Shown here: positions 1-42,405 of the stretch, piece by piece
Layout of the letters: the number at the start of each line of letters is the position of its first letter
Numbering within the stretch: position 1 is the stretch's first letter
Position numbers and translations under genes: made by a program
Virus record (IMG/VR): IMGVR_UViG_3300028886_000057
Coordinates: 32,001-96,000 of that record
Length of the DNA: 64,000 bases
DNA from: a virus
Lineage: Duplodnaviria; Caudoviricetes
Strand: one strand, 5' to 3'
The notes under the pieces: model-generated
Seen by the model: only the letters and a program-made list of their open reading frames with translations
Database searches by the model: none
Told to the model about the DNA's origin: nothing

Positions 1-3000
1 TTCTTGTACACTTTCGGAATGAATACTGAGCCGCGGCTAATGCCGGTGATCAACAGGTGAGTTCCTTTTTCAAAGAAGCTCGGACCATTCGTTTCATTCG
101 CGTAGAACGCGAACAAGTCTTTATATAACTTTAACACAATTATGCCGTCTGGCGCCTGTACCGTAACTAATCCTTTTGTTGTGTTCTTATTTAACACCGT
201 GCCAACCAACGTGTACAAATGCATCTTCGGCACGCGTTTACCTTTAATATTGAAGAAGCCATCAATCGCCCCTTCTTGAATGTCGCCGACCAAATCGGTC
301 TCGACCGGGATCTGCGGCAAGATGTCCCACAATGGACTCTTCGACTTATAATAGTTGAGCGCGTCCAACTCCCAACTCTTCTCATCACCCGCGCCGTATT
401 TATTCCAATCATCCATAAAGAGATGATTATTTAACTTCTTCAGTAACTCGGCTTCATGCGCCTTAATATACGCCGTGGTCCGTACTTTACATCCATTATA
501 AACGTAAGCATCCCATCTTGCGCTGTCAATCGCTTCAACCACTCGACCGTTCGGCAATTGGATTGCTTCAATTTCAGCCTTACTCAATACGTAATCACGA
601 TCGACTGTATCGCCCATCATATAATATGATTCACTATCATCTCTATACTTGCGCAACTCTTTCGTCACCTTGAAGCACTTCTGCTCCTCTGCCAATTCCG
701 GCGGCAACAAACCAAAGTCAATTAACATATTCGCATTCTGCATAGTTAATCGGCCCTTTTGGTCCGCGGTCGACAAAATATATGCTTGTAAGATTTCTCT
801 TACGCTCTTGCCTTCAATTGCGTTAAAACAGCCCGCCTTAATCAAGTTAACGACTTTCGCACGGTTTACAATTCGCTTGTTCACCTTTTGCACGAAGTCT
901 GCCAAACTCGCATATGGACGATGTTCCATAATCTCTTGAATAACCGGTGACGTAATCATTGTGATGCCCTTCAAGCCGTACATAATTTCGTTACGTTCAA
1001 CGTTCGGCATAAAGCCCAACTTCGACTTATTAATATCCGGTGAGGTAATCGTACAAATATCTTTGAAACGGTTAACCGCCAAAATAATCTTGCTGACGTC
1101 CGTCTTACTCTGGTCGCGCTTATCGGCTTCATCCGTTTCTGCCAAGTCGATGATGCCTTCGTCCAACAAGTTGTCGAAGTCACTTTCATCAATAGCGGAA
1201 CTATCGACCGACAAACAGGCGCAGTTCCAATAAATAATCGGCCATCTATATGCCAAGTTCATTTCCTGAACCGCCAAGATCGAGTAACCTGTCGTGTGAA
1301 CGATTGAAAAAGAGTAGCCCAAGCTCTTTTTAACCTGGACGTCCCAAACGTAGTTTAAGATCTGGTCACTATTACCCAACGCACGACCCTTTTCCAAGAA
1401 CAACTGATGAACCTTTTCGATCTGGTCAAATTGCTTCTTAGCAATAGTCTTACGGAGTTTATTCGCCTCTACCATTGTGAAGCCCGCAATTTTCGGGTCC
1501 ATCGACAACTCCATAACGATTTCTTGGGTCGCTGCGACGCCATAGTACTGCAACAAGTACTTCTCCAACGTCTTGACTTCATCTTCGTTCAACCCATACA
1601 TCGCCATTTCTGAATACCACTGGCTAATATCGCGCTTAAATCTAACATATGTATCAAGAGGCAATTCACCCTCACACATAAGTCTCATAACCGCGTTTCC
1701 TACCGCTAACTCCATTAAGTTGCGCGGCTGAATGGCCTTAACGGCTTGACTACCTACTGCGGTATCGAACTGGAACAATGCCGTAATCTCACCATTATCG
1801 ACCATATCCCACATCTTCTCGCTGGTATAATCCAAAACTTTCGGGTTCAAATATTTATCATAAGTCGACTTCAAGTCACCTTGCCAGTCGATCTCATGGT
1901 TTTCTAACAAATAGTTGAAGCACTGACGAATACGATCCAACGCCGAAACCGTTAACATATCATACTTAATTAAGCCGCACGCTTCAGAGTCGTGGAGTTC
2001 GAGTGCCGTTACTAACGTACCGCTTCTCGTCTGCATGATACTGTTGTAGTCATTAATATCGCCATTAACGCAAACAATACCAGACGCGTGCTGACCCAAG
2101 CTAACCACCAAACCTTCAATTTTATGAGCAACCGCCCAAAGATCAGGATACTGGTCTATCTCTTCTTTAAAAGCGGTAATGGCATTGTGTTCCTCATCGC
2201 CATAATAACACTGGTCCAGAGTCCAGTCGAAACCACGCTCATTCGGGACCATTGAGCCCAAATATGAGACGATTTCTTCATCAATGCCGAGACCACGAGC
2301 AGCCGTCTTCAATGCATTTTTCGTACCGCACGTACCAAATGTGCAAACCGCGTAGACGTCGCCGCCGATACTTCTAAAGTAATCACGAATCTTATTAAAA
2401 ACCTTGACACGCTTAAAAGACTCCGTGTCGAAGTCAATATCAGGATAGTCGGGACGCTCCGGGTCCAAGAAACGCCAAGCCGCCATGTGCGCCGGCTGCT
2501 CCAACGGGTTCATTTGCGTAATGCCCAACAAATAGTTGATAAGGAACGCACCTGCCGAACCACGACTCGGACCGACTAACGAGTCAGCCTCATGCCAAAT
2601 AATATCCATTAACTTCGCCATTGTGGTGAAGTAGTCAGCCATATGAACGCCCTTATTTTCAGAGATAAGGTGAATGGTGCGAAGCTCGGTTTCCAACTCC
2701 TCGATGTACTCCGGCAAACGTGCTTCGGGAATCTGCTCTTTAATCCAGCCCCTCGTCACCAACTTCATAAAATATGAGTCGATTTCGTCGGTGGTGGTTG
2801 CAAAGTATCTCAAATGTTCATGGTCTGCAAGGTAAGGTTCAAAAACTTTGCAGTTCTCAAATATTTCATTTCTTACAATATACGGAATCTGTTGCGGCTT
2901 ACGAAGATCGAACGGCTTAATCATATCATAGATACGCAACGTATTCTGCGCCATTTCTTCCATCTGCTCAGCAGTTACATAGTCTTTGAAGTAGTCCCAG

Positions 3001-3770
3001 ACTTCTTCATAACTCATCATATACGCCGATGCATAAAACGAGTCGACCTCACGATCACCATTCTTCGAGTTCAAAAACGCGCGATGAATCGGACGATCTT
3101 CCTTCTTCAAATAGTGCGAGTCGGTGGTGAAGATAAATGGCATCTTACCCCAAAACGTCTTAATCAAATATTTATTATATGCAATTTGGTCCTCTTGGAA
3201 CGACGGCTGCAATTCAATATACCAATTGCCTTTACCAAACAACTCTTGCATAGCTCCGGCGAAACGTTCGATCGACGCGAAGTCGCCATCTTTAAACTTA
3301 CGGCCCAAATAACCACCGATACAAGCCGAGCTTGCCACCAAGTGACCGCCCTTTACCAATTCATATAAATCGTTCGGAGTCGTCCAAACACGTGTCATAA
3401 ACGTGCCGAAACCACGTTCCCAGGCACGGCTGCTTAATTGCCGCATCTGGTGATAGCCTTCCATATCTTTTGCTAATAAGATAAAGTGAAAAAATGGCTC
3501 GCCCTTTTGATAGTTTTCGGCCGTCAAATCATTTCTAGCTATATAAATCTCGTTGCCGAGAATAAGTTTAAAATCAGTATCTTTATATTTATCAGCCCAA
3601 TACGCCATCGCCTTAACGTGACCAGACAAACTTTCATGGTCGGTAATGGCTACGCCTTTAAGCCCAATTTCATAGGCATAATCAATTAAATCATTTGGTT
3701 TATTAATACTGTCGATCAATCGCAGGTTGCTGTACATCGTGTGGTTATGTAATGAAACGTAAGTAGACAT
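1..3770 (-). CDS. dnaE: DNA polymerase III alpha subunit (3' end runs off the window)
   Basis: Absent from the ORF track because there is no stop in the window. ATG at 3770 with AAGGAG RBS. Reads MSTYVSLHNHTMYSNLRLIDS (PHP domain), VGPSRGSAG, RPDYPDIDFD, GYSFSIVHT. The same frame ends ...LITGISRGSVFIPKVYK at position 3. Confidence 0.95.
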   Translation of the reverse strand, partial: MSTYVSLHNHTMYSNLRLIDSINKPNDLIDYAYEIGLKGVAITDHESLSGHVKAMAYWADKYKDTDFKLILGNEIYIARNDLTAENYQKGEPFFHFILLAKDMEGYHQMRQLSSRAWERGFGTFMTRVWTTPNDLYELVKGGHLVASSACIGGYLGRKFKDGDFASIERFAGAMQELFGKGNWYIELQPSFQEDQIAYNKYLIKTFWGKMPFIFTTDSHYLKKEDRPIHRAFLNSKNGDREVDSFYASAYMMSYEEVWDYFKDYVTAEQMEEMAQNTLRIYDMIKPFDLRKPQQIPYIVRNEIFENCKVFEPYLADHEHLRYFATTTDEIDSYFMKLVTRGWIKEQIPEARLPEYIEELETELRTIHLISENKGVHMADYFTTMAKLMDIIWHEADSLVGPSRGSAGAFLINYLLGITQMNPLEQPAHMAAWRFLDPERPDYPDIDFDTESFKRVKVFNKIRDYFRSIGGDVYAVCTFGTCGTKNALKTAARGLGIDEEIVSYLGSMVPNERGFDWTLDQCYYGDEEHNAITAFKEEIDQYPDLWAVAHKIEGLVVSLGQHASGIVCVNGDINDYNSIMQTRSGTLVTALELHDSEACGLIKYDMLTVSALDRIRQCFNYLLENHEIDWQGDLKSTYDKYLNPKVLDYTSEKMWDMVDNGEITALFQFDTAVGSQAVKAIQPRNLMELAVGNAVMRLMCEGELPLDTYVRFKRDISQWYSEMAMYGLNEDEVKTLEKYLLQYYGVAATQEIVMELSMDPKIAGFTMVEANKLRKTIAKKQFDQIEKVHQLFLEKGRALGNSDQILNYVWDVQVKKSLGYSFSIVHTTGYSILAVQEMNLAYRWPIIYWNCACLSVDSSAIDESDFDNLLDEGIIDLAETDEADKRDQSKTDVSKIILAVNRFKDICTITSPDINKSKLGFMPNVERNEIMYGLKGITMITSPVIQEIMEHRPYASLADFVQKVNKRIVNRAKVVNLIKAGCFNAIEGKSVREILQAYILSTADQKGRLTMQNANMLIDFGLLPPELAEEQKCFKVTKELRKYRDDSESYYMMGDTVDRDYVLSKAEIEAIQLPNGRVVEAIDSARWDAYVYNGCKVRTTAYIKAHEAELLKKLNNHLFMDDWNKYGAGDEKSWELDALNYYKSKSPLWDILPQIPVETDLVGDIQEGAIDGFFNIKGKRVPKMHLYTLVGTVLNKNTTKGLVTVQAPDGIIVLKLYKDLFAFYANETNGPSFFEKGTHLLITGISRGSVFIPKVYK

Positions 3771-4555: not shown

Positions 4556-6367
4556 TTATATCAAATCCAATGCGCTAATTTCCTCGATTGGAGCGGCAAT
4601 ATCGAGGCTATCTACAACAATTTGCACAGAGTTGCTATAACTATTAACTTGCGCTTTACCTACGCACGTGATGCGAGTTTTGACCGAGTTCTTGAGTTGC
4701 CGCGCCAAGCCGGGTTGCTTAAACATAACGAACTCGACGCCACCACGAGAGAACTTAATTGTATCATGTTCTTTACCGATGAAACTAAATTCACTTGCGT
4801 TCATACTGAATGAGAACGCAAAGCGCGGCTGCGGGATACCGTTACCATATACATACATACCTCTTGCAAAATCTGATAAGAGGTTGCCGGCGACCGCGTC
4901 TTTAAACCAATAGTCAACTTCAATATATTCGGTAGTAAAGTCAACATTTTTCATGGCATTGTCGGCATATTCAACGAAGGCTTTGAGCCCCTCTGTAGTA
5001 AAACCGCAACCTGCGGCGAATGGGTGACCCTCGGCCCAGCCGTCGCCCGATGTGTTAATCATTTCCATCAAAGATGGAACGGGGCGAATCTGTCCATCGA
5101 CCGTTTCATAATATTGATCGGCGCGAAGTGAGCCGCTATAAGTAACCTTGCCTTCATCGCTGCACGACTCACGCAAAACCATAACCGGTTTATGATACTC
5201 TTTGCTCAACTCCATGGCAGTCAAGCCGGTGAGAGTCGGCAATACTAAGTTTTGCTCGTCCGCGGTGACAGGAATTGCAATAACTTGGTGTTCATCTAAG
5301 TGATGCTTAACTATTTTTTGTTTAAGTAAGGCACTGCCACGTTTTTTGGCGCTGTCTTGGCGACCTTTAGCGTTAGCCGCCAAACGAACTGCATACTCAT
5401 AAATGGTTTCGGTGCGTGGCGTGCCGCGGTTATCTGACGTAAATAGCTCCGTGCAGTTATCTTCAACCATGGCACGGAAGAAGAGTTCTTTTTCCTCTTG
5501 CGAGCCACTGCGAATCAAACCGTTAATAAGCGGCGCTACGTAAAACGCCACGTCAGTTTTCGTTGGGTGCGCGATATTCGCAATAGAATAAGCGCGGCTT
5601 TTGAGAATCTCTTGCAAAATTTTGTTGCGGATGCGGCCCAAACCGCGTCGAATAATATAGTTGTTGCCCAGAGTACGCGTATCCATAACGTCAGCAATAA
5701 TACCGACAGCAGCCAGGTCCAAATATTTTTCCCACATATGTGGAACATAAGAGTCTAACACACTGATGATGCCATATTTCTCTTCATATGCCTTAACAAA
5801 CATTAATACAATACCGGCACCAGACATGGCTTTATTGTTGAAATCCGGACTAGCTTGGTTGTTAACTACAATTACATCCGGATGATTAAACTCGCCGCTA
5901 ACTTCGTGGTGGTCTAAAATGACAACCCACTTGCCTTGTTTGGCTAACTCTTCCTGTTCGGTTAGCTGCATAGAACCGGCGTCGGGAATAATGACAATGC
6001 CCGCATCGCCAACTTTATCCATTTCGATACCATGCTCTTTTCCAGCATGTACGCCCCAGACTAACTCAATATCAGGGGCGGTTTCGCGCAAAAAGTGGCA
6101 AAAGATAGAGGCAGAGGTGAAACCGTCGGTGTCGCAGTCCACTTGCACATAGAACTTCTTTTTCGCCGCAATGGCATCATGCACTTTGTCTACCGCAGCT
6201 TCCATATTACGGAGCTGCCATGGATTGTCCAAGTCTTTAATTGGCGGCTCTTCAGTCAGGAAGCTGGCAACGTGATCTTCTGTGATACCTAATGTCATTA
6301 AATAATCACGTAAGTAATTCGTGCTGCCAATTTTAATACTGTTGTCTTTTACTTTGATCTCTTTCAT
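4556..6367 (-). CDS. recJ: RecJ-like DHH-family ssDNA exonuclease
   Basis: DCDTDG, ILDHH, DLAAVGIIADVM, GSLR and GHPFAAG motifs. Confidence 0.9.
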   Translation of the reverse strand: MKEIKVKDNSIKIGSTNYLRDYLMTLGITEDHVASFLTEEPPIKDLDNPWQLRNMEAAVDKVHDAIAAKKKFYVQVDCDTDGFTSASIFCHFLRETAPDIELVWGVHAGKEHGIEMDKVGDAGIVIIPDAGSMQLTEQEELAKQGKWVVILDHHEVSGEFNHPDVIVVNNQASPDFNNKAMSGAGIVLMFVKAYEEKYGIISVLDSYVPHMWEKYLDLAAVGIIADVMDTRTLGNNYIIRRGLGRIRNKILQEILKSRAYSIANIAHPTKTDVAFYVAPLINGLIRSGSQEEKELFFRAMVEDNCTELFTSDNRGTPRTETIYEYAVRLAANAKGRQDSAKKRGSALLKQKIVKHHLDEHQVIAIPVTADEQNLVLPTLTGLTAMELSKEYHKPVMVLRESCSDEGKVTYSGSLRADQYYETVDGQIRPVPSLMEMINTSGDGWAEGHPFAAGCGFTTEGLKAFVEYADNAMKNVDFTTEYIEVDYWFKDAVAGNLLSDFARGMYVYGNGIPQPRFAFSFSMNASEFSFIGKEHDTIKFSRGGVEFVMFKQPGLARQLKNSVKTRITCVGKAQVNSYSNSVQIVVDSLDIAAPIEEISALDLI

Positions 6368-14193: not shown

Positions 14194-14456
14194 TTATAGT
14201 GTCTACACCACTGACACGGCGAGTCGCCGACCATTGGATTACCAAATGCATCTCTTGGTCCATCTCGATTGGGACAGGTTAAGCACGGATCATTTGTGGT
14301 CGCGCCATTAATATTAATAATATAAATATTAATGTCGTTTTTTATATTATCGAACTGATCCAGGAAATCCAAAGTTGGAATCGCATCTTCATTGATATAC
14401 TGACGCCAATCAATATTATAACTATTCTTCACTGTCATCTTCATACGAATCTCCAA
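14175..14456 (-). CDS. small Cys-motif protein
   Basis: CLTC...CQWC; start may be 14444. Confidence 0.55.
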   Translation of the reverse strand: MEIRMKMTVKNSYNIDWRQYINEDAIPTLDFLDQFDNIKNDINIYIININGATTNDPCLTCPNRDGPRDAFGNPMVGDSPCQWCRHYKWRITW

Positions 14457-15048
14457 TCTCGCCCTTAATCTTGTGGCTTAAAATGAAGGAACGGCGTTTC
14501 TCGGCACTCTTGCCCATTAACGTATCGAACGCCAATAAGTCGGCTTCAATATCGTCAGGTTTAAGTTGAATGAGGTGACGACGTTCAGGATCGAGACAGG
14601 TGTCATATAACTCCTGCGGCGCCATTTCGCCCAAACCTTTGAAGTGAGTGCGCTCGCCAACCTTGTTACGAGCATCTTTTTCAGAGTAGTAGTAGTTCGT
14701 GCCGCGTTGGTTGGTAATACGGTAAAGAGGCGGCACAACCCTATACACTTTGCCGGCTTCAATTAGCTTCGGCAAGTGGCGAAGGAATAGCGCCTCAATA
14801 AGCAGCTGAATGTGGCCGCCATCGGGGTCAGCATCACTGAAAATAATGATCTTGTCGTAACGCAAGTTATTGATATTAAAGTTATCACCAACGCCGCAGC
14901 CAAGTGCGGTCAAGATATTCTTAACCTCTTGACTTTCAAGGGCGTCTGCGAGGTCGCGGCTCCAAGTGTTCAAAATCTTACCACGCAAGCCAAGAACCGC
15001 CTGATTCTGCTTGTTGCGCATAATACGCGCGTTGCCACTAGCTGAGTC
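14422..15048 (-). CDS. gyrB: topoisomerase subunit B, exon 2 (TOPRIM)
   Basis: Begins GAC TCA GCT AGT GGC (DSASG) in frame with the 14422..15021 ORF; LRGKILN, DADPDGGHI, FKGLGEM. Confidence 0.93.
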   Translation of the reverse strand, partial: DSASGNARIMRNKQNQAVLGLRGKILNTWSRDLADALESQEVKNILTALGCGVGDNFNINNLRYDKIIIFSDADPDGGHIQLLIEALFLRHLPKLIEAGKVYRVVPPLYRITNQRGTNYYYSEKDARNKVGERTHFKGLGEMAPQELYDTCLDPERRHLIQLKPDDIEADLLAFDTLMGKSAEKRRSFILSHKIKGEIGDSYEDDSEE

Positions 15049-15128
15049 CGAGCGCTAGCTACTCGCTGACTATTTCTTCATCTATATTATAGATGCCTAA
15101 CATTTCGAATTACGTACCAATAGTAATT

Positions 15129-15941
15129 CTACTCCCCAACAACGGGGATAGTCGATACAGGTATGTTATGCAATTCAGATAAATACTGCTGATGTAATGC
15201 TTCTATCTTGGCTTTATTTTTCGCCCTGCAACGATAGCCAGCATTACCATATAATGGATCCACAATGGACTGGCATACTTCTTGAAAAGTTTGCCAATCC
15301 ACTACTTGTTTAAATAATGGATACACCTTATTGTATTTAATTGGACCATAATATTTAAATATAATTACTAATTGATTTTTATCATTATCAGTTAATTGAT
15401 TACGACGTTTGGTGGCATATACTGAATGATCTGGTTTTGGATATTTGCCTACGTATTCTGGACAAACATCAAACCAACAATCATGCAGCCATACTTTACT
15501 AAATCCATTTCGCACTCCGCCAGGCATTTTGGCTTCATAATCTTTATATACATCTGATAAACGCTCTCCATTCATGCGGCGTCGACGAATTTCTCGAACG
15601 TCATCTTCAGTAATCAAGGCACGTGGATTATTCTCCCCTTTGACGCTAGGTAAGTTGCTAACATCATCACCGCCTAGAGTAGCATTATATCCATCATAAT
15701 AAGAATTATATATTTGAATATAATGTTGCTCTAATTGTTTCGCCTCTTCTCTAGTTTCGCATTGATCAATTATATCAACGGTGAAATTCTCCCATCCATA
15801 TTTTTGAATACTTAAATCAATAGGAGATTGAGGTGCGTCGTGTCCAGCACGATGTTGTTGCATACGTCGTTGGATGTTAACTGTAATACCAATATATGGT
15901 TTATTGGTAATTAAATTTGTAATTTTATAGATATATTGCAT
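15129..15941 (-). CDS. intron-encoded GIY-YIG homing endonuclease
   Basis: YIYKITN...YIGIT...R...H...E...GYNATLGG; AT-rich; looped out of P6a (GTTATGCAA/TTGCATAAC). Confidence 0.9.
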   Translation of the reverse strand: MQYIYKITNLITNKPYIGITVNIQRRMQQHRAGHDAPQSPIDLSIQKYGWENFTVDIIDQCETREEAKQLEQHYIQIYNSYYDGYNATLGGDDVSNLPSVKGENNPRALITEDDVREIRRRRMNGERLSDVYKDYEAKMPGGVRNGFSKVWLHDCWFDVCPEYVGKYPKPDHSVYATKRRNQLTDNDKNQLVIIFKYYGPIKYNKVYPLFKQVVDWQTFQEVCQSIVDPLYGNAGYRCRAKNKAKIEALHQQYLSELHNIPVSTIPVVGE

Positions 15942-15972
15942 AACTTCCCACGAGACTCCTTATTACTATATT

Positions 15973-16002
15973 AGTATAGTAATAAGTTACCCTCGTTAGC
16001 AA
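15973..16002 (-). promoter_or_regulatory. class-2 promoter inside the intron (TTGCTA-N18-TATACT)
   Basis: Same spacing and -10 as the other class-2 sites; lies just upstream of the endonuclease RBS. Confidence 0.65.
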
Positions 16003-16067
16003 ATCCGGTTGCAGAATCCGAACTTACCCCAGTGGTTACTGGATAGAAAGGTAAGGGCAACTCATTC

Positions 16068-17345
16068 ACCCTCTGTAATAAACAGTTCGCCGTGGCGGTC
16101 GGGGCAGTCACTCAACTTCTCTGGCATGTCGCGCAAAGTATTAAGGTTTTTACCGCCACTGACAACCTTTGCGGCTGCCGCTTTAGCACGTTTCGCAGCA
16201 TCTTCGGCCTTCTGTTCGACCTGGACTTTCTTAATAATTTCGTCTGCTTGTGTCTTGGTAAGAACTAACTTACCTATTGCCTGGGAACAGGCGGTGCGTG
16301 CTTCAGGACTGGTCAGCTTGAGCTTCGTTTGCTCTGCAAACTGCGGCCGCTGAACCATTTTTACACTTAGAATACAGAGGAGGCCGCGTCGGATAATCGA
16401 ACCATCAAAATTTTCACCTTCTTTGATAAATTCGAGCTCTTTGGCCTTCTTATTAATAAGCGAAGTAAAGCCGCTACGGAAACCCGTAACGTGAGTGCCT
16501 TCATCTGGGTTGTAGCCACCATTCGTGAAGGCGTAGAAGTGCTCGCCCGGCTTATCAATATATTGGAACGCATACTCGATGATGAACTCATCTGGCGTTC
16601 CTTTTGCTATTTCAACTTTGTTATAAATAGGTTTGGTTATAACCTTTTCGCCCTCGGCCTTTAGCGACAACATGTCTTTAATGCCGTTAGTGTAGTAGAA
16701 GTTGGCAATCTCTTTTGCTTCATGTCCTTTTTCTTCAACCAGTAGACGGAAGCGGATACCATTATTAAGTAGAGCGTGATACTGGAGTTTTTCTTTAATC
16801 AAATCAATATCCCACTTAATACCTTTAAACATAGTATCGTCAGGAATAAAAGATACTGTCGTACCGGTGTGTTTATGAGGCCCGTCTTTAATAATCGGCA
16901 ACCCCTCACCATTTTTAAATACGACTTCACACTCACCATCTTCACGAACTGAAATAACATGCATCCAGCTAGATAATGCATTGGTGACCGTGCCGCCTAC
17001 ACCATTTAACCCTAATGCGGATTTATAAGCTGTGTCGCCCTCAAATTTGCCACCAGCGTGCAGTCCTTGATAAACGGACAAGATGGCATATTGCCCATCT
17101 TTATTTTTACGGAATGGAACACCACGACCATGATCACGCACAATTGCCATATTACTTTCTGGTACAATAGTAACTTCTATACAGTCTCCATATCCGGCGG
17201 AGGCTTCATCCATTGCGTTACACACAATTTCCTCAAGCAAATGATGTAGCCCATTTACATCACAAGCCCCTATATACATCCCGGTGCTTCCCCGGATGCC
17301 TTCTCGCCAACTTAGTTGACGAATTGAATTTTCATCATATGCCAT
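16068..17345 (-). CDS. gyrB: topoisomerase subunit B, exon 1 (GHKL ATPase + transducer)
   Basis: GMYIG, EIVCNAMDE, DHGRGVP, LHAGGKF, GLNGVG, ends ELFITEG; spliced product 634 aa. Confidence 0.93.
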
Positions 17346-18120
17346 TAATGTTCTCCTTTATTCGTTGCTGATAATATTCTATTTGTTCTTCATTATAATC
17401 TTTTGGGAAAATCCAAGTTTTTTTACGTTTTAGATAAATTGGCAAATGTCGCCAGTTTTGACCGGAGATAATTGCGACAATTGTGCGTTGATGAATGTGT
17501 GCATATTTTTTAAATAAATATTCTCGATTGTAATGAACATAGTCTAATCTAATCTGAAAAACTTCTTCAGATTTTAATTCAGCTGAAGTATTATTTTCAC
17601 CCCATTGATTAGAAGTGCGACGATTATTATTTAACTGTTTATAATAATAATTATTATTTTCTTGAGTAAAAACTTCGGGCATGACCCAGCTCCATAAATT
17701 GCCCTTAAAAACTTCTCGGAAACTTTGTTCGTTGCCGTGTCCATATTTTTCAAAAACCTCTTTAAAGGATTTATAGTCGTGATTAGCGTAAATAGTTCGT
17801 AATTGTTTGATCTCGTCAACAGTATAAATGACATTGCTGCTAAGTCGACTGCCACGACCACCAATAGTACAATTATAACCATTATTATAAGTATCTAATG
17901 CGCTTATCCAATAACCTTCACGTTCATCTAACTGATCAACTGAACACTCTTCTATAATTTCCCAATGAAAATGTTCGGTTCCATATTTTTTAATAGCTAA
18001 ATCAATAGCAATATTGTCTTTACAACTAAAATGTTGTTTAATGCGTTTGATAATATTAACAGACTGCCCTACATACTGTAGTCCATTAATATCATTAGTG
18101 ATTACATAAATGCCAATCAT
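17335..18120 (-). CDS. free-standing GIY-YIG endonuclease
   Basis: GIYVITN...YVGQS...GYNCTIGG; GGAG RBS favours ATG 18120; overlaps the gyrB start. Confidence 0.88.
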   Translation of the reverse strand: MIGIYVITNDINGLQYVGQSVNIIKRIKQHFSCKDNIAIDLAIKKYGTEHFHWEIIEECSVDQLDEREGYWISALDTYNNGYNCTIGGRGSRLSSNVIYTVDEIKQLRTIYANHDYKSFKEVFEKYGHGNEQSFREVFKGNLWSWVMPEVFTQENNNYYYKQLNNNRRTSNQWGENNTSAELKSEEVFQIRLDYVHYNREYLFKKYAHIHQRTIVAIISGQNWRHLPIYLKRKKTWIFPKDYNEEQIEYYQQRIKENINGI

Positions 18121-18298
18121 ATACACTCTCCATGTATATTAATGTACATGACATGTGTATATTAAGGCAAATTTACTTGTCATTTTTTGCTCCTATAACT
18201 TTTACTAAAAACACGCCTAATATTGCCCAATTGAGGACTGCGGCGCATTCTGCTAATGTTGCCCATAAACCAATCATAAAGTACTCCTTTCTTCTATA

Positions 18299-41972: not shown

Positions 41973-42311
41973 CTACTTATCGGACCCCTTATGGGCTTTA
42001 GGGTCGGTGTACAGTTGATTCACGCGAATCTCCTGCTTGTTGTAGCCGCGCTTGGGATCGAAACAGTGGTAATAGTCGCTCCAATATGCTTCGCGCTCAC
42101 CCAGCCGTTCAACGGGGCAGATCTCCAGCATTTCCCACTTAAAGTACTTCCAGTCGGTTTTGAAATCGCGCTGCATAGCTTTGTTGCCATGCGTGCCCTG
42201 CTTGAGCTTGCGCATATGCTGCTTAATGCGCTCGCTAACATGGACGGACTGGCCGACATAGCGCTTACCATTTTTTAAATTAGTTATACAATATATTCCA
42301 GAACGCATCAT
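41973..42311 (-). CDS. small stand-alone GIY-YIG nuclease
   Basis: SGIYCITN...YVGQS...R...H...E...GYN; no DNA-binding tail. Confidence 0.8.
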   Translation of the reverse strand: MMRSGIYCITNLKNGKRYVGQSVHVSERIKQHMRKLKQGTHGNKAMQRDFKTDWKYFKWEMLEICPVERLGEREAYWSDYYHCFDPKRGYNKQEIRVNQLYTDPKAHKGSDK

Positions 42312-42318
42312 ACAATTT

Positions 42319-42405
42319 AGTTTATAAAGCTTGCCCACCTACTGTCAATCTTGCCGCGCCTATATTCGTCCCGTTTTGCTTCAAAAACCAAGCCGATGAG
42401 ATACT
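42319..42405. promoter_or_regulatory. divergent pair of class-2 promoters
   Basis: Minus strand TTGACA-N18-TAAACTAAA (42348-42319); plus strand TTGCTT-N18-GATACTAAA (42376-42405). Confidence 0.6.

Follow-up and report, generated by a model that had tools for sequence, protein, structure and literature searches.

The intron of T4 td, which encodes I-TevI, belongs to the phage IA type of group I introns; it carries the P7.1 and P7.2 helices, loops a GIY-YIG open reading frame (ORF) out of P6 and occupies the conserved catalytic region of a DNA-metabolism gene, and the intron of phage Twort orf142 is an IA2 ribozyme with a crystal structure. The Staphylococcus jumbo phages Machias, Madawaska and MarsHill reportedly have an intron in gyrB, as Korn et al. 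are said to have described in J Virol in 2021 (10.1128/JVI.02391-20). The td system has been reviewed (PMC2988022), the Twort orf142 group I intron was described by Landthaler and Shub, 1999 (PMC22036), and 'DNA gyrase B' is listed among intron-split phage genes in Supplementary Table S1 of a 2025 study (PMC11878797). Here we analysed a window of 64,000 nucleotides (nt), bases 32001-96000 of the 130,088-bp IMG/VR virus record IMGVR_UViG_3300028886_000057, which is rated 100% complete, and in which gyrB is interrupted by a 1019-nt insert at the EG|DSA position of the Toprim domain (the bar marks the insertion point). This insert is, very probably, a mobile intron of the phage IA type of group I, extended by P7.1/P7.2 and carrying a GIY-YIG gene. 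The evidence consists of the exon junction, a conserved and co-varying fold, the kinship of the 3' half to Twort and an ORF whose match spans the whole GIY-YIG catalytic domain.

In GenBank record MW349128 (Staphylococcus phage Machias, L138) gyrB is annotated as a two-exon join and, like the window gene, is interrupted in a Toprim catalytic motif. Whereas the Machias translation has a stop-rich intervening sequence of ~170 nt (~2200-2370) that lacks an ORF and lies at ...ITSDAD|DDGLHIQ..., with EGDSA intact, the window insert is 1019 nt long, holds a GIY-YIG gene and breaks EG|DSA itself. An apparent further gap in Machias near KGLGEM was found to be an in-frame insertion domain, not an intron. 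A transposase coding sequence (CDS) lies just upstream of Machias gyrB. The initial annotation of the window had hinted that a topoisomerase host gene would be new for such introns, a suggestion contradicted by the Machias join, by the Table S1 entry and by the finding that gyrB is interrupted in ~20 of the 117 loci listed with the RNA signature described below. The window intron is therefore an ordinary addition to phage gyrB introns that were already annotated and catalogued, and it leaves the current understanding of group I introns and homing unchanged; what it contributes, modestly, is the exact EG|DSA site, a family-wide picture and a within-gene relationship to the KG|LGEM site. A literature search that covered few subscription journals found no publication on an intron at EG|DSA specifically.

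Other selfish elements also occupy conserved parts of type II topoisomerases, as the window insert does, namely mobA, which splits T4 gene 39/60, and the inteins of GyrB and GyrA (PMC2988022; PMC4760082). In T4 39/60, however, a free-standing endonuclease leaves separate polypeptides, and inteins splice at the protein level, whereas the window insert would be removed at the RNA level. The T4 td intron differs from the window in its host gene and its 5' layout and in that the window ORF runs on into P6', P7 and P7.1; no nucleotide similarity between the window insert and the T4 td intron was detectable by BLAST.

The gyrB exons and their junction

The gene and its insert are arranged as follows.

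16068..17345, minus strand: gyrB exon 1, 426 codons with the GHKL ATPase, the transducer and the first strand of Toprim up to E-G (ORF and Pfam)
14422..15048, minus strand: gyrB exon 2, 208 codons plus stop, with DSA..., the DxDxDG metal site, KGLGEM and the C-terminal domain (Pfam)
15049..16067, minus strand: probable group I intron of 1019 nt that begins with G16067 and ends with omega-G 15049 (boundaries from intronless alleles, fold, covariation and covariance model)
15129..15941, minus strand: putative intron GIY-YIG homing endonuclease ORF, 270 amino acids (aa) plus stop, in the P6 loop (Pfam)

The minus-strand ORF that begins gyrB (17345..16062, 427 codons) reads ...GELFITEG-E-stop, and the exon reading frame closes two codons into the insert. 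Exon 1 ends ...ELFITEG with GAG GGT (16068) and exon 2 starts at 15048 with GAC TCA (DSASG...), from where the protein resumes as DSASGNARIMRNKQ... and runs to the stop at 14422. With split points at 16068|16067 and 15049|15048, the predicted spliced junction is ...ACAGAGGGT joined to GACTCAGCT (GAGGGT|GACTCA), and the joined exons (426 + 208) give a 634-aa GyrB that unites the GHKL ATPase, the transducer, a Toprim domain with both E-G-D-S-A and DxDxDG, and the C-terminal KGLGEM. Pfam matches divide accordingly between the exons, with HATPase_c and DNA_gyraseB on exon 1 and Toprim (from profile position 15 only) and DNA_gyraseB_C on exon 2. In phage numbering, the insertion point lies between Gly426 and Asp427, within the Toprim E-G-D-S-A catalytic motif.

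Two comparisons bear on this junction. Nine of ten IMG/VR gyrB relatives, at ~50% identity, were uninterrupted, and in most of these the match to exon 1 ends one base before the match to exon 2 (...F[CV]EG|DSAA...). Against the solved E. coli GyrB (6rks_B), exon 1 aligns to residues 4-425 and exon 2 to residues 426-546; the break therefore falls at Gly425|Asp426 in E. coli numbering, inside one continuous Toprim fold. The junction and the coordinates given in the initial annotation, including the restored EG-DSA, the 634-aa product and the 1019-nt insert, were thus exact, and the intronless relatives that it had proposed looking for do exist. Megablast of the locus against 50,697 phage records gave no match, and the window GyrB has <60% protein identity to any deposited phage GyrB.

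It is conceivable that nothing is spliced and that GyrB is made from a gene in pieces as two polypeptides, residues 1-428 and a C-terminal fragment, as with T4 gp39/gp60 (mobA) or the NrdA of Aeh1 (mobE). Endonuclease-split phage topoisomerase and ribonucleotide reductase genes provide a precedent (PMC2988022), and exon 2 offers an in-frame ATG at 15021. The break, however, lies inside E-G-D-S-A, a fragment starting from Met 15021 would be without DSASGNARI, and no Shine-Dalgarno sequence was evident by eye before that ATG. Moreover, a conserved, co-varying ribozyme flanks the endonuclease ORF on both sides, and a relative in locus L007 that carries an ORF-less 240-nt insert at the same site is not explicable by endonuclease insertion. 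We regard a two-polypeptide GyrB as highly improbable and continue with the group I intron.

Ribozyme fold and putative endonuclease of the insert

The ribozyme comprises three regions.

16053..16073, minus strand: P1 and P10 5' strand region (read from sequence)
15947..16051, minus strand: 5' core, from the P3 5' strand to the P6 5' strand (RNAalifold with pair counts, P3 tests and minimum free energy fold)
15049..15163, minus strand: 3' core, from P6' to omega-G (match to covariance model R1 and covariation)

At the 5' end, exon sequence GAGGGU (16073-16068) pairs in P1 with the guide sequence GCCCUU (16058-16053), with U16068.G16058 as the splice-site pair, and UGAGUU (16064-16059) pairs over 6 bp with exon 2 GACUCA (15048-15043) as P10. 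The P3 5' strand (16051-16046) follows, then hairpin a (16042-16029), hairpin b (16028-15998) and J3/4 UAA; the two hairpins sit 3' of the P3 5' strand, in the manner of P3.1/P3.2, and there is no true P2. P4 is formed by 15996-15991 with 15955-15950, P5 is a 12-bp hairpin (15986-15959), and the P6 5' strand GGG (15949-15947) is matched by P6' CCU (15161-15159) on the far side of the ORF. P7 pairs GACUAU (15153-15148) with AUAGUC (15073-15068) and carries AAGAAAUAGUC; between its strands lie P7.1 (15147-15134), P7.2 (15129-15107), a conserved GAAAU, P3' GUUAGG (15101-15096), P8 (15095-15079) and J8/7 AAGAA, and after it come P9 (15066-15052) and omega-G 15049. A minimum free energy fold of the ORF-deleted window intron recovered most helices without family information. 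The elements that the initial annotation had read from the sequence, namely P1 with its U.G pair, P10, P4, P7, P7.1, P7.2, P8 and the terminal G15049, were all found; its P9 is present as well, but short and departing from the family consensus.

In a BLAST search with the insert, similarity was confined to 62 nt downstream of its ORF; the matching regions, all unannotated, came from Enterococcus phage EF1/EF5 and from twelve records of Lactococcus phages (LW81/AM1/P1048 group), and the EF1 and LW81 inserts proved to have long blocks in common with the window insert. From these inserts, the window insert and L007 we derived the signature GCTAACGRGG-N15-45-CYCGTGGGAA, which occurs once in the window and in none of 100 shuffles, and which is present in at least 117 viral contigs. 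Sixty complete cores (55 unique) were extracted from the signature loci, their ORFs were cut out computationally, and the cores were then aligned. In the 55 cores, RNAalifold and pair counts gave many compensatory pair types for the two 5' hairpins, P5, P7.1, P7.2, P8 and P9; P4 varies at one pair only, and P6 and P7 are invariant, a conservation that allows no covariation signal.

For P3, the strand directly after the guide sequence and the strand after GAAAU were paired in 81% of cases, compared with 28-59% when slid, a value that 0 of 300 shuffles reached, and in the family fold P3 and P7 form a pseudoknot. The textbook P3, with its strand just 5' of J3/4, was paired in only 62% (covariation 0.16) and was rejected for the strand after the guide sequence. 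In the 3' half, 95.2% of cells were paired versus ~35% when slid, and covariation was 0.62 versus 0.06-0.12 (0/500 shuffles), with two-sided changes across the family at every P7.1 pair and at 6 of the 7 P7.2 pairs. P1 in turn co-varies with the exon across host genes (GAGGGU/GCCCUU, GAAGGU/GGCCUUU in L013, GAGAGU/GCUCU in L031, CAGGU/GCCUG, UUGGU/GCCAA and others), with ...GGGU/GCCC the commonest P1 family-wide, and P10 shows a compensatory change in L007, where exon GAUUCA faces intron AGAAUU. Automatic detection of P1 could not be relied on in roughly half of the members, for which it returned 4-bp helices (5 bp was reached by 13 shuffled versus 27 real), and the P1 evidence was restricted to clear cases.

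A covariance model of P7-P9 (R1), built from 39 copies with the window and L007 excluded, matched the window at 15163-15041 with 85.7 bits (E 3.7e-16); no other match occurred in the window or anywhere else in the 130-kb genome, and the bit score of this match was the highest among the loci tested. R1 had no match inside Machias gyrB. R1, which models the 3' half only, also matched phage Twort, at 17094-17203 in an unannotated gap with 49.8 bits, and a second Twort match scored 37.4 bits. We take the first match to be the crystallised orf142 ribozyme, an assignment made from the sequence and the gap position and not by mapping to published coordinates. Twort resembles the window in P7 GACUAU/AUAGUC, P7.1, AGUAG, P7.2, CGAAAU, P3', P8, J8/7 GAUAUAGUC and the P9 hairpin. 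The 5' halves differ, in that Twort follows the textbook order, with P2 between P1 and P3 and the P3 5' strand abutting J3/4, whereas the window family has no P2, places P3 directly after the guide sequence and inserts two P3.1/P3.2-like hairpins before J3/4. P3.1 is a recognised optional element (PMC3873408), and the phage "IA2" introns are heterogeneous and overlap IA3 (PMC11878797). The T4-type IA2 label first applied to the intron is consequently borne out by P7.1/P7.2 and by the relation of the 3' half to Twort but not by the 5' layout; we assign the intron to the phage IA type, with IA2 and IA3-like both as candidates.

The ORF of the insert matches Pfam PF01541 (GIY-YIG) with E 2.4e-13 over residues 2-86 and profile positions 2-78 of 78, and its translation shows IYK...YIG, Arg, Glu and GYN motifs, which were assigned by eye. 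It starts six bases past the P6 5' strand, runs through P6', J6/7, P7 and P7.1, and stops at the first base of P7.2. The earlier placement of the ORF within an enclosing P6a is corrected to the P6 loop, with the last ~11 codons continuing through P6', P7 and P7.1. Where the window intron carries its ORF, the ORF-less L007 has a 17-nt hairpin loop. Among the fetched loci, the closest enzymes to that of the window, with 33-36% identity, are endonucleases encoded by gyrB introns of other phages, the majority of them at DAD|PDG.

Several observations weigh against a functional group I intron. Rfam release 15 gave no group I match for the window insert, even when the gathering threshold was relaxed to E<=10, which could be taken to favour a chance resemblance or a different element such as a group II intron, an intein or an insertion sequence. 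The relatives in L002 (ORF-less) and L001 likewise had no Rfam release 15 match at E<=1, and because ORF-less relatives were missed too, we read the null as poor model coverage more than absence; of the covariance scans that had been proposed for the insert, the Rfam models were silent, but the family model R1 was not. The shuffle results for the signature and for the 3'-half covariation, together with the E value of R1, effectively refute a chance origin or another kind of element, to which we give practically no weight. Pfam found GIY-YIG alone in the insert, with no intein or reverse-transcriptase domain, and since the exon ORF ends two codons into it, the insert is not translated in frame. 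The reading first proposed, in which a group I intron carries a GIY-YIG homing endonuclease and its removal restores EG-DSA, is supported by the junction, the covariation, R1 and Pfam.

The remaining contrary points concern the condition of the intron. The window P3 is weak (CCUUUC/GUUAGG, with two U-U mismatches), and its P9, a stem of only 4 bp, lacks both an L9 tetraloop and the GNRA loop found in most family members, with three outer pairs that fail in the R1 alignment. L007, the nearest relative, shares the P3 U-U and the unusual P9 and, if its 5' splice site is the canonical one that follows GAGGGU, has A and not G as its last intron base, ending ...CUUCGAUA|GAUUCA. A +1 shift of both splice sites in L007 brings back a terminal G at the cost of the U at the 5' splice site; the terminal A could mean that the intron is defective, that the assembly contains an error or that the omega nucleotide is an unusual one. 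The intron could on these grounds be real but decaying or impaired in splicing, with gyrB poorly expressed, dependent on a protein cofactor or on its way to a pseudogene. All invariant core positions are nevertheless kept (P7, J8/7, GAAAU, J3/4-P4 and J6/7), in a locus with the top R1 score of those tested; both exons are intact and in frame, gyrA is intact downstream of gyrB (13895-11721), and the endonuclease ORF is full length over the whole GIY-YIG domain. The U-U at the same P3 position in L007 points to a lineage trait, not to fresh damage. We judge decay improbable, and the weak P3 and short P9 could mean that self-splicing is inefficient or cofactor-dependent.

For an active intron, the following course of events is predicted from the sequence. 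gyrB would be transcribed through the intron and the RNA would fold; P1 would present U16068 paired to the G of the guide sequence GCCCUU, and an external guanosine would attack after U16068. P10 (UGAGUU/GACUCA) and the terminal G15049 would then position exon 2, and exon ligation would yield an mRNA for the continuous 634-aa GyrB. The GIY-YIG product of the P6-loop ORF would presumably cut the intron-less gyrB of co-infecting relatives near EG|DSA, and repair of the cut allele would copy the intron in (homing).

Related introns and suggested movement between sites

Pfam matches on the upstream exon of 51 family copies gave the following host-gene tally.

DnaB_C: 9 copies
NRDD: 7 copies
DNA_gyraseB: 5 copies
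Toprim: 4 copies
DHH: 4 copies
Pol III alpha: 2-3 copies
DNA_topoisoIV (GyrA-type): 2 copies

This spectrum, conserved motifs of replication genes, is typical of homing introns. By tblastn, the gyrB interruptions among the signature loci fall at four recurring motifs.

Site A, GLNG|VGG in the ATP-lid motif: L127, L092, L128 and L013; insertions not assigned to the window's RNA family
Site B, EG|DSA: the window, L007 and L100, in the window's RNA family, and L013 with a different, Twort-like core
Site C, DAD|PDG: the most frequent site; window's RNA family
Site D, KG|LGEM: L013, L029, L070 and LW81; window's RNA family

The gyrB gene is evidently a frequent intron target, interrupted at four conserved motifs of which three are held by one RNA family, and the catalytic Glu-Gly of Toprim is now added to the list of its insertion sites. 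The site A insertions are 245-866 nt long (L127 902-1756, L092 10282-11147, L128 7659-7903) and lack the family P4-P6 signature.

Homologous introns have core identities of 55-70% to the window intron. L007 (EG|DSA), L029, L070 and LW81 (KG|LGEM), and EF1, L031 and L064 (primase EG|E) all have the same signature, alignable P7-P9, and the guide sequence GCCCUU or a close variant with an exon ending ...AGGGU; save for L007, they differ from the window in site or gene, and they occur with or without an endonuclease ORF. The L007 intron (5282-5521) lies at exactly the window's site, with ~70% core identity. The record of Lactococcus phage LW81 (L002, KY554777), like those of AM1-AM12 and P1048, splits gyrB into two CDS that share the name 'subunit B of ATP-hydrolyzing DNA topoisomerase', which bears out in practice the forecast that automated annotation would report two gyrB fragments. 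The gap between them (2315-~2627) is an ORF-less family intron at ...YSRSKG|LGEL..., and joining after U2314 and G~2627 restores the frame. Gene callers would treat the window in the same way, with two gyrB fragments and a "hypothetical" endonuclease, and since Rfam misses this intron family, phage replication genes are systematically mis-called.

In Enterococcus phage EF1 (L001, MF001358; 1196-2159), a family intron with a 223-aa GIY-YIG ORF follows AIVFEG (GAG GGT), and exon 2 resumes EKSVMKMDD; the interrupted codons are the same Toprim E-G codons as in the window gyrB. All CDS of this phage are annotated hypothetical, and the host gene looks like a DnaG-type primase. The primase Toprim EG|E site is occupied in EF1, L031 and L064 and empty in ~30 other primases. 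In L013 (~200-3600, minus strand), a single gyrB has three insertions: ~354 nt near residue 100, 214 nt at EG|DSA with a Twort-like core whose guide sequence GGCCUUU matches exon GAAGGU, and 982 nt at KG|LGEM with a family core (R1 66 bits). Because the L013 intron at site B has a different core from that of the window, EG|DSA has been colonised at least twice.

A maximum-likelihood tree of the 55 cores (210 columns, guide sequence excluded; short, with an arbitrary root) paired the window with L007 (support 100/98) and nested both within the site-D gyrB introns L029 and L070 (100/97), with LW81, also at site D, branching next with weak support. The window, L070 and LW81 all have GCCCUU as their guide sequence and A(A/G)AGGGU at the end of the 5' exon. 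The nesting within site-D introns and the shared guide sequence and 5' exon suggest that the EG|DSA lineage goes back to an intron at KG|LGEM that changed its place within gyrB, a move for which reverse splicing and illegitimate homing are alternative mechanisms. Transposition by reverse splicing has long been proposed and is rarely documented in nature. That the KG|LGEM to EG|DSA move matches the trace expected of guide-sequence-directed reverse-splicing transposition rather than endonuclease homing, with the free-standing enzyme upstream of gyrB (below) possibly serving collaborative homing, is a speculative proposal that we consider unlikely. On a small scale, the data set is a natural experiment in the spread of group I introns to new sites.

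An identical GAGGGT 5' exon and an 87% BLAST match had raised the idea of a recent transfer between the primase EG site (EF1, L031 and L064) and the gyrB EG site. This idea was not supported: the core identity of the window intron to the primase introns is 0.58-0.60, no higher than to others, and the tree sets the primase-EG introns apart, with a cost of 30 log-likelihood units for forcing them into one clade with the gyrB-EG introns (AU p 0.054, borderline).

Neighbouring endonucleases and genome context

Two further endonuclease-like features were found in the window.

17335-18126, minus strand: free-standing GIY-YIG gene, 263 aa, directly upstream of gyrB
42039-42320, minus strand: third segment resembling a GIY-YIG homing endonuclease; the 94 aa tested match a homing endonuclease in PHROGs (E 3e-17)

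The last codons of the 263-aa gene overlap the gyrB start codon, and signature and R1 scans of the window found no ribozyme core flanking it. Its product is 33% identical to the intron enzyme and 38-39% identical (E 1e-43) to gyrB intron endonucleases of the DAD|PDG site, a site that is intron-free in the window. From this resemblance, the upstream enzyme might target the DAD|PDG site in competing phages, in a form of collaborative homing. Further PHROGs matches were to phage helicases, to a RecJ-like nuclease and, weakly, to a tail fibre. The segment at 42039-42320 is 42% identical to the enzyme upstream of gyrB over 87 aa.

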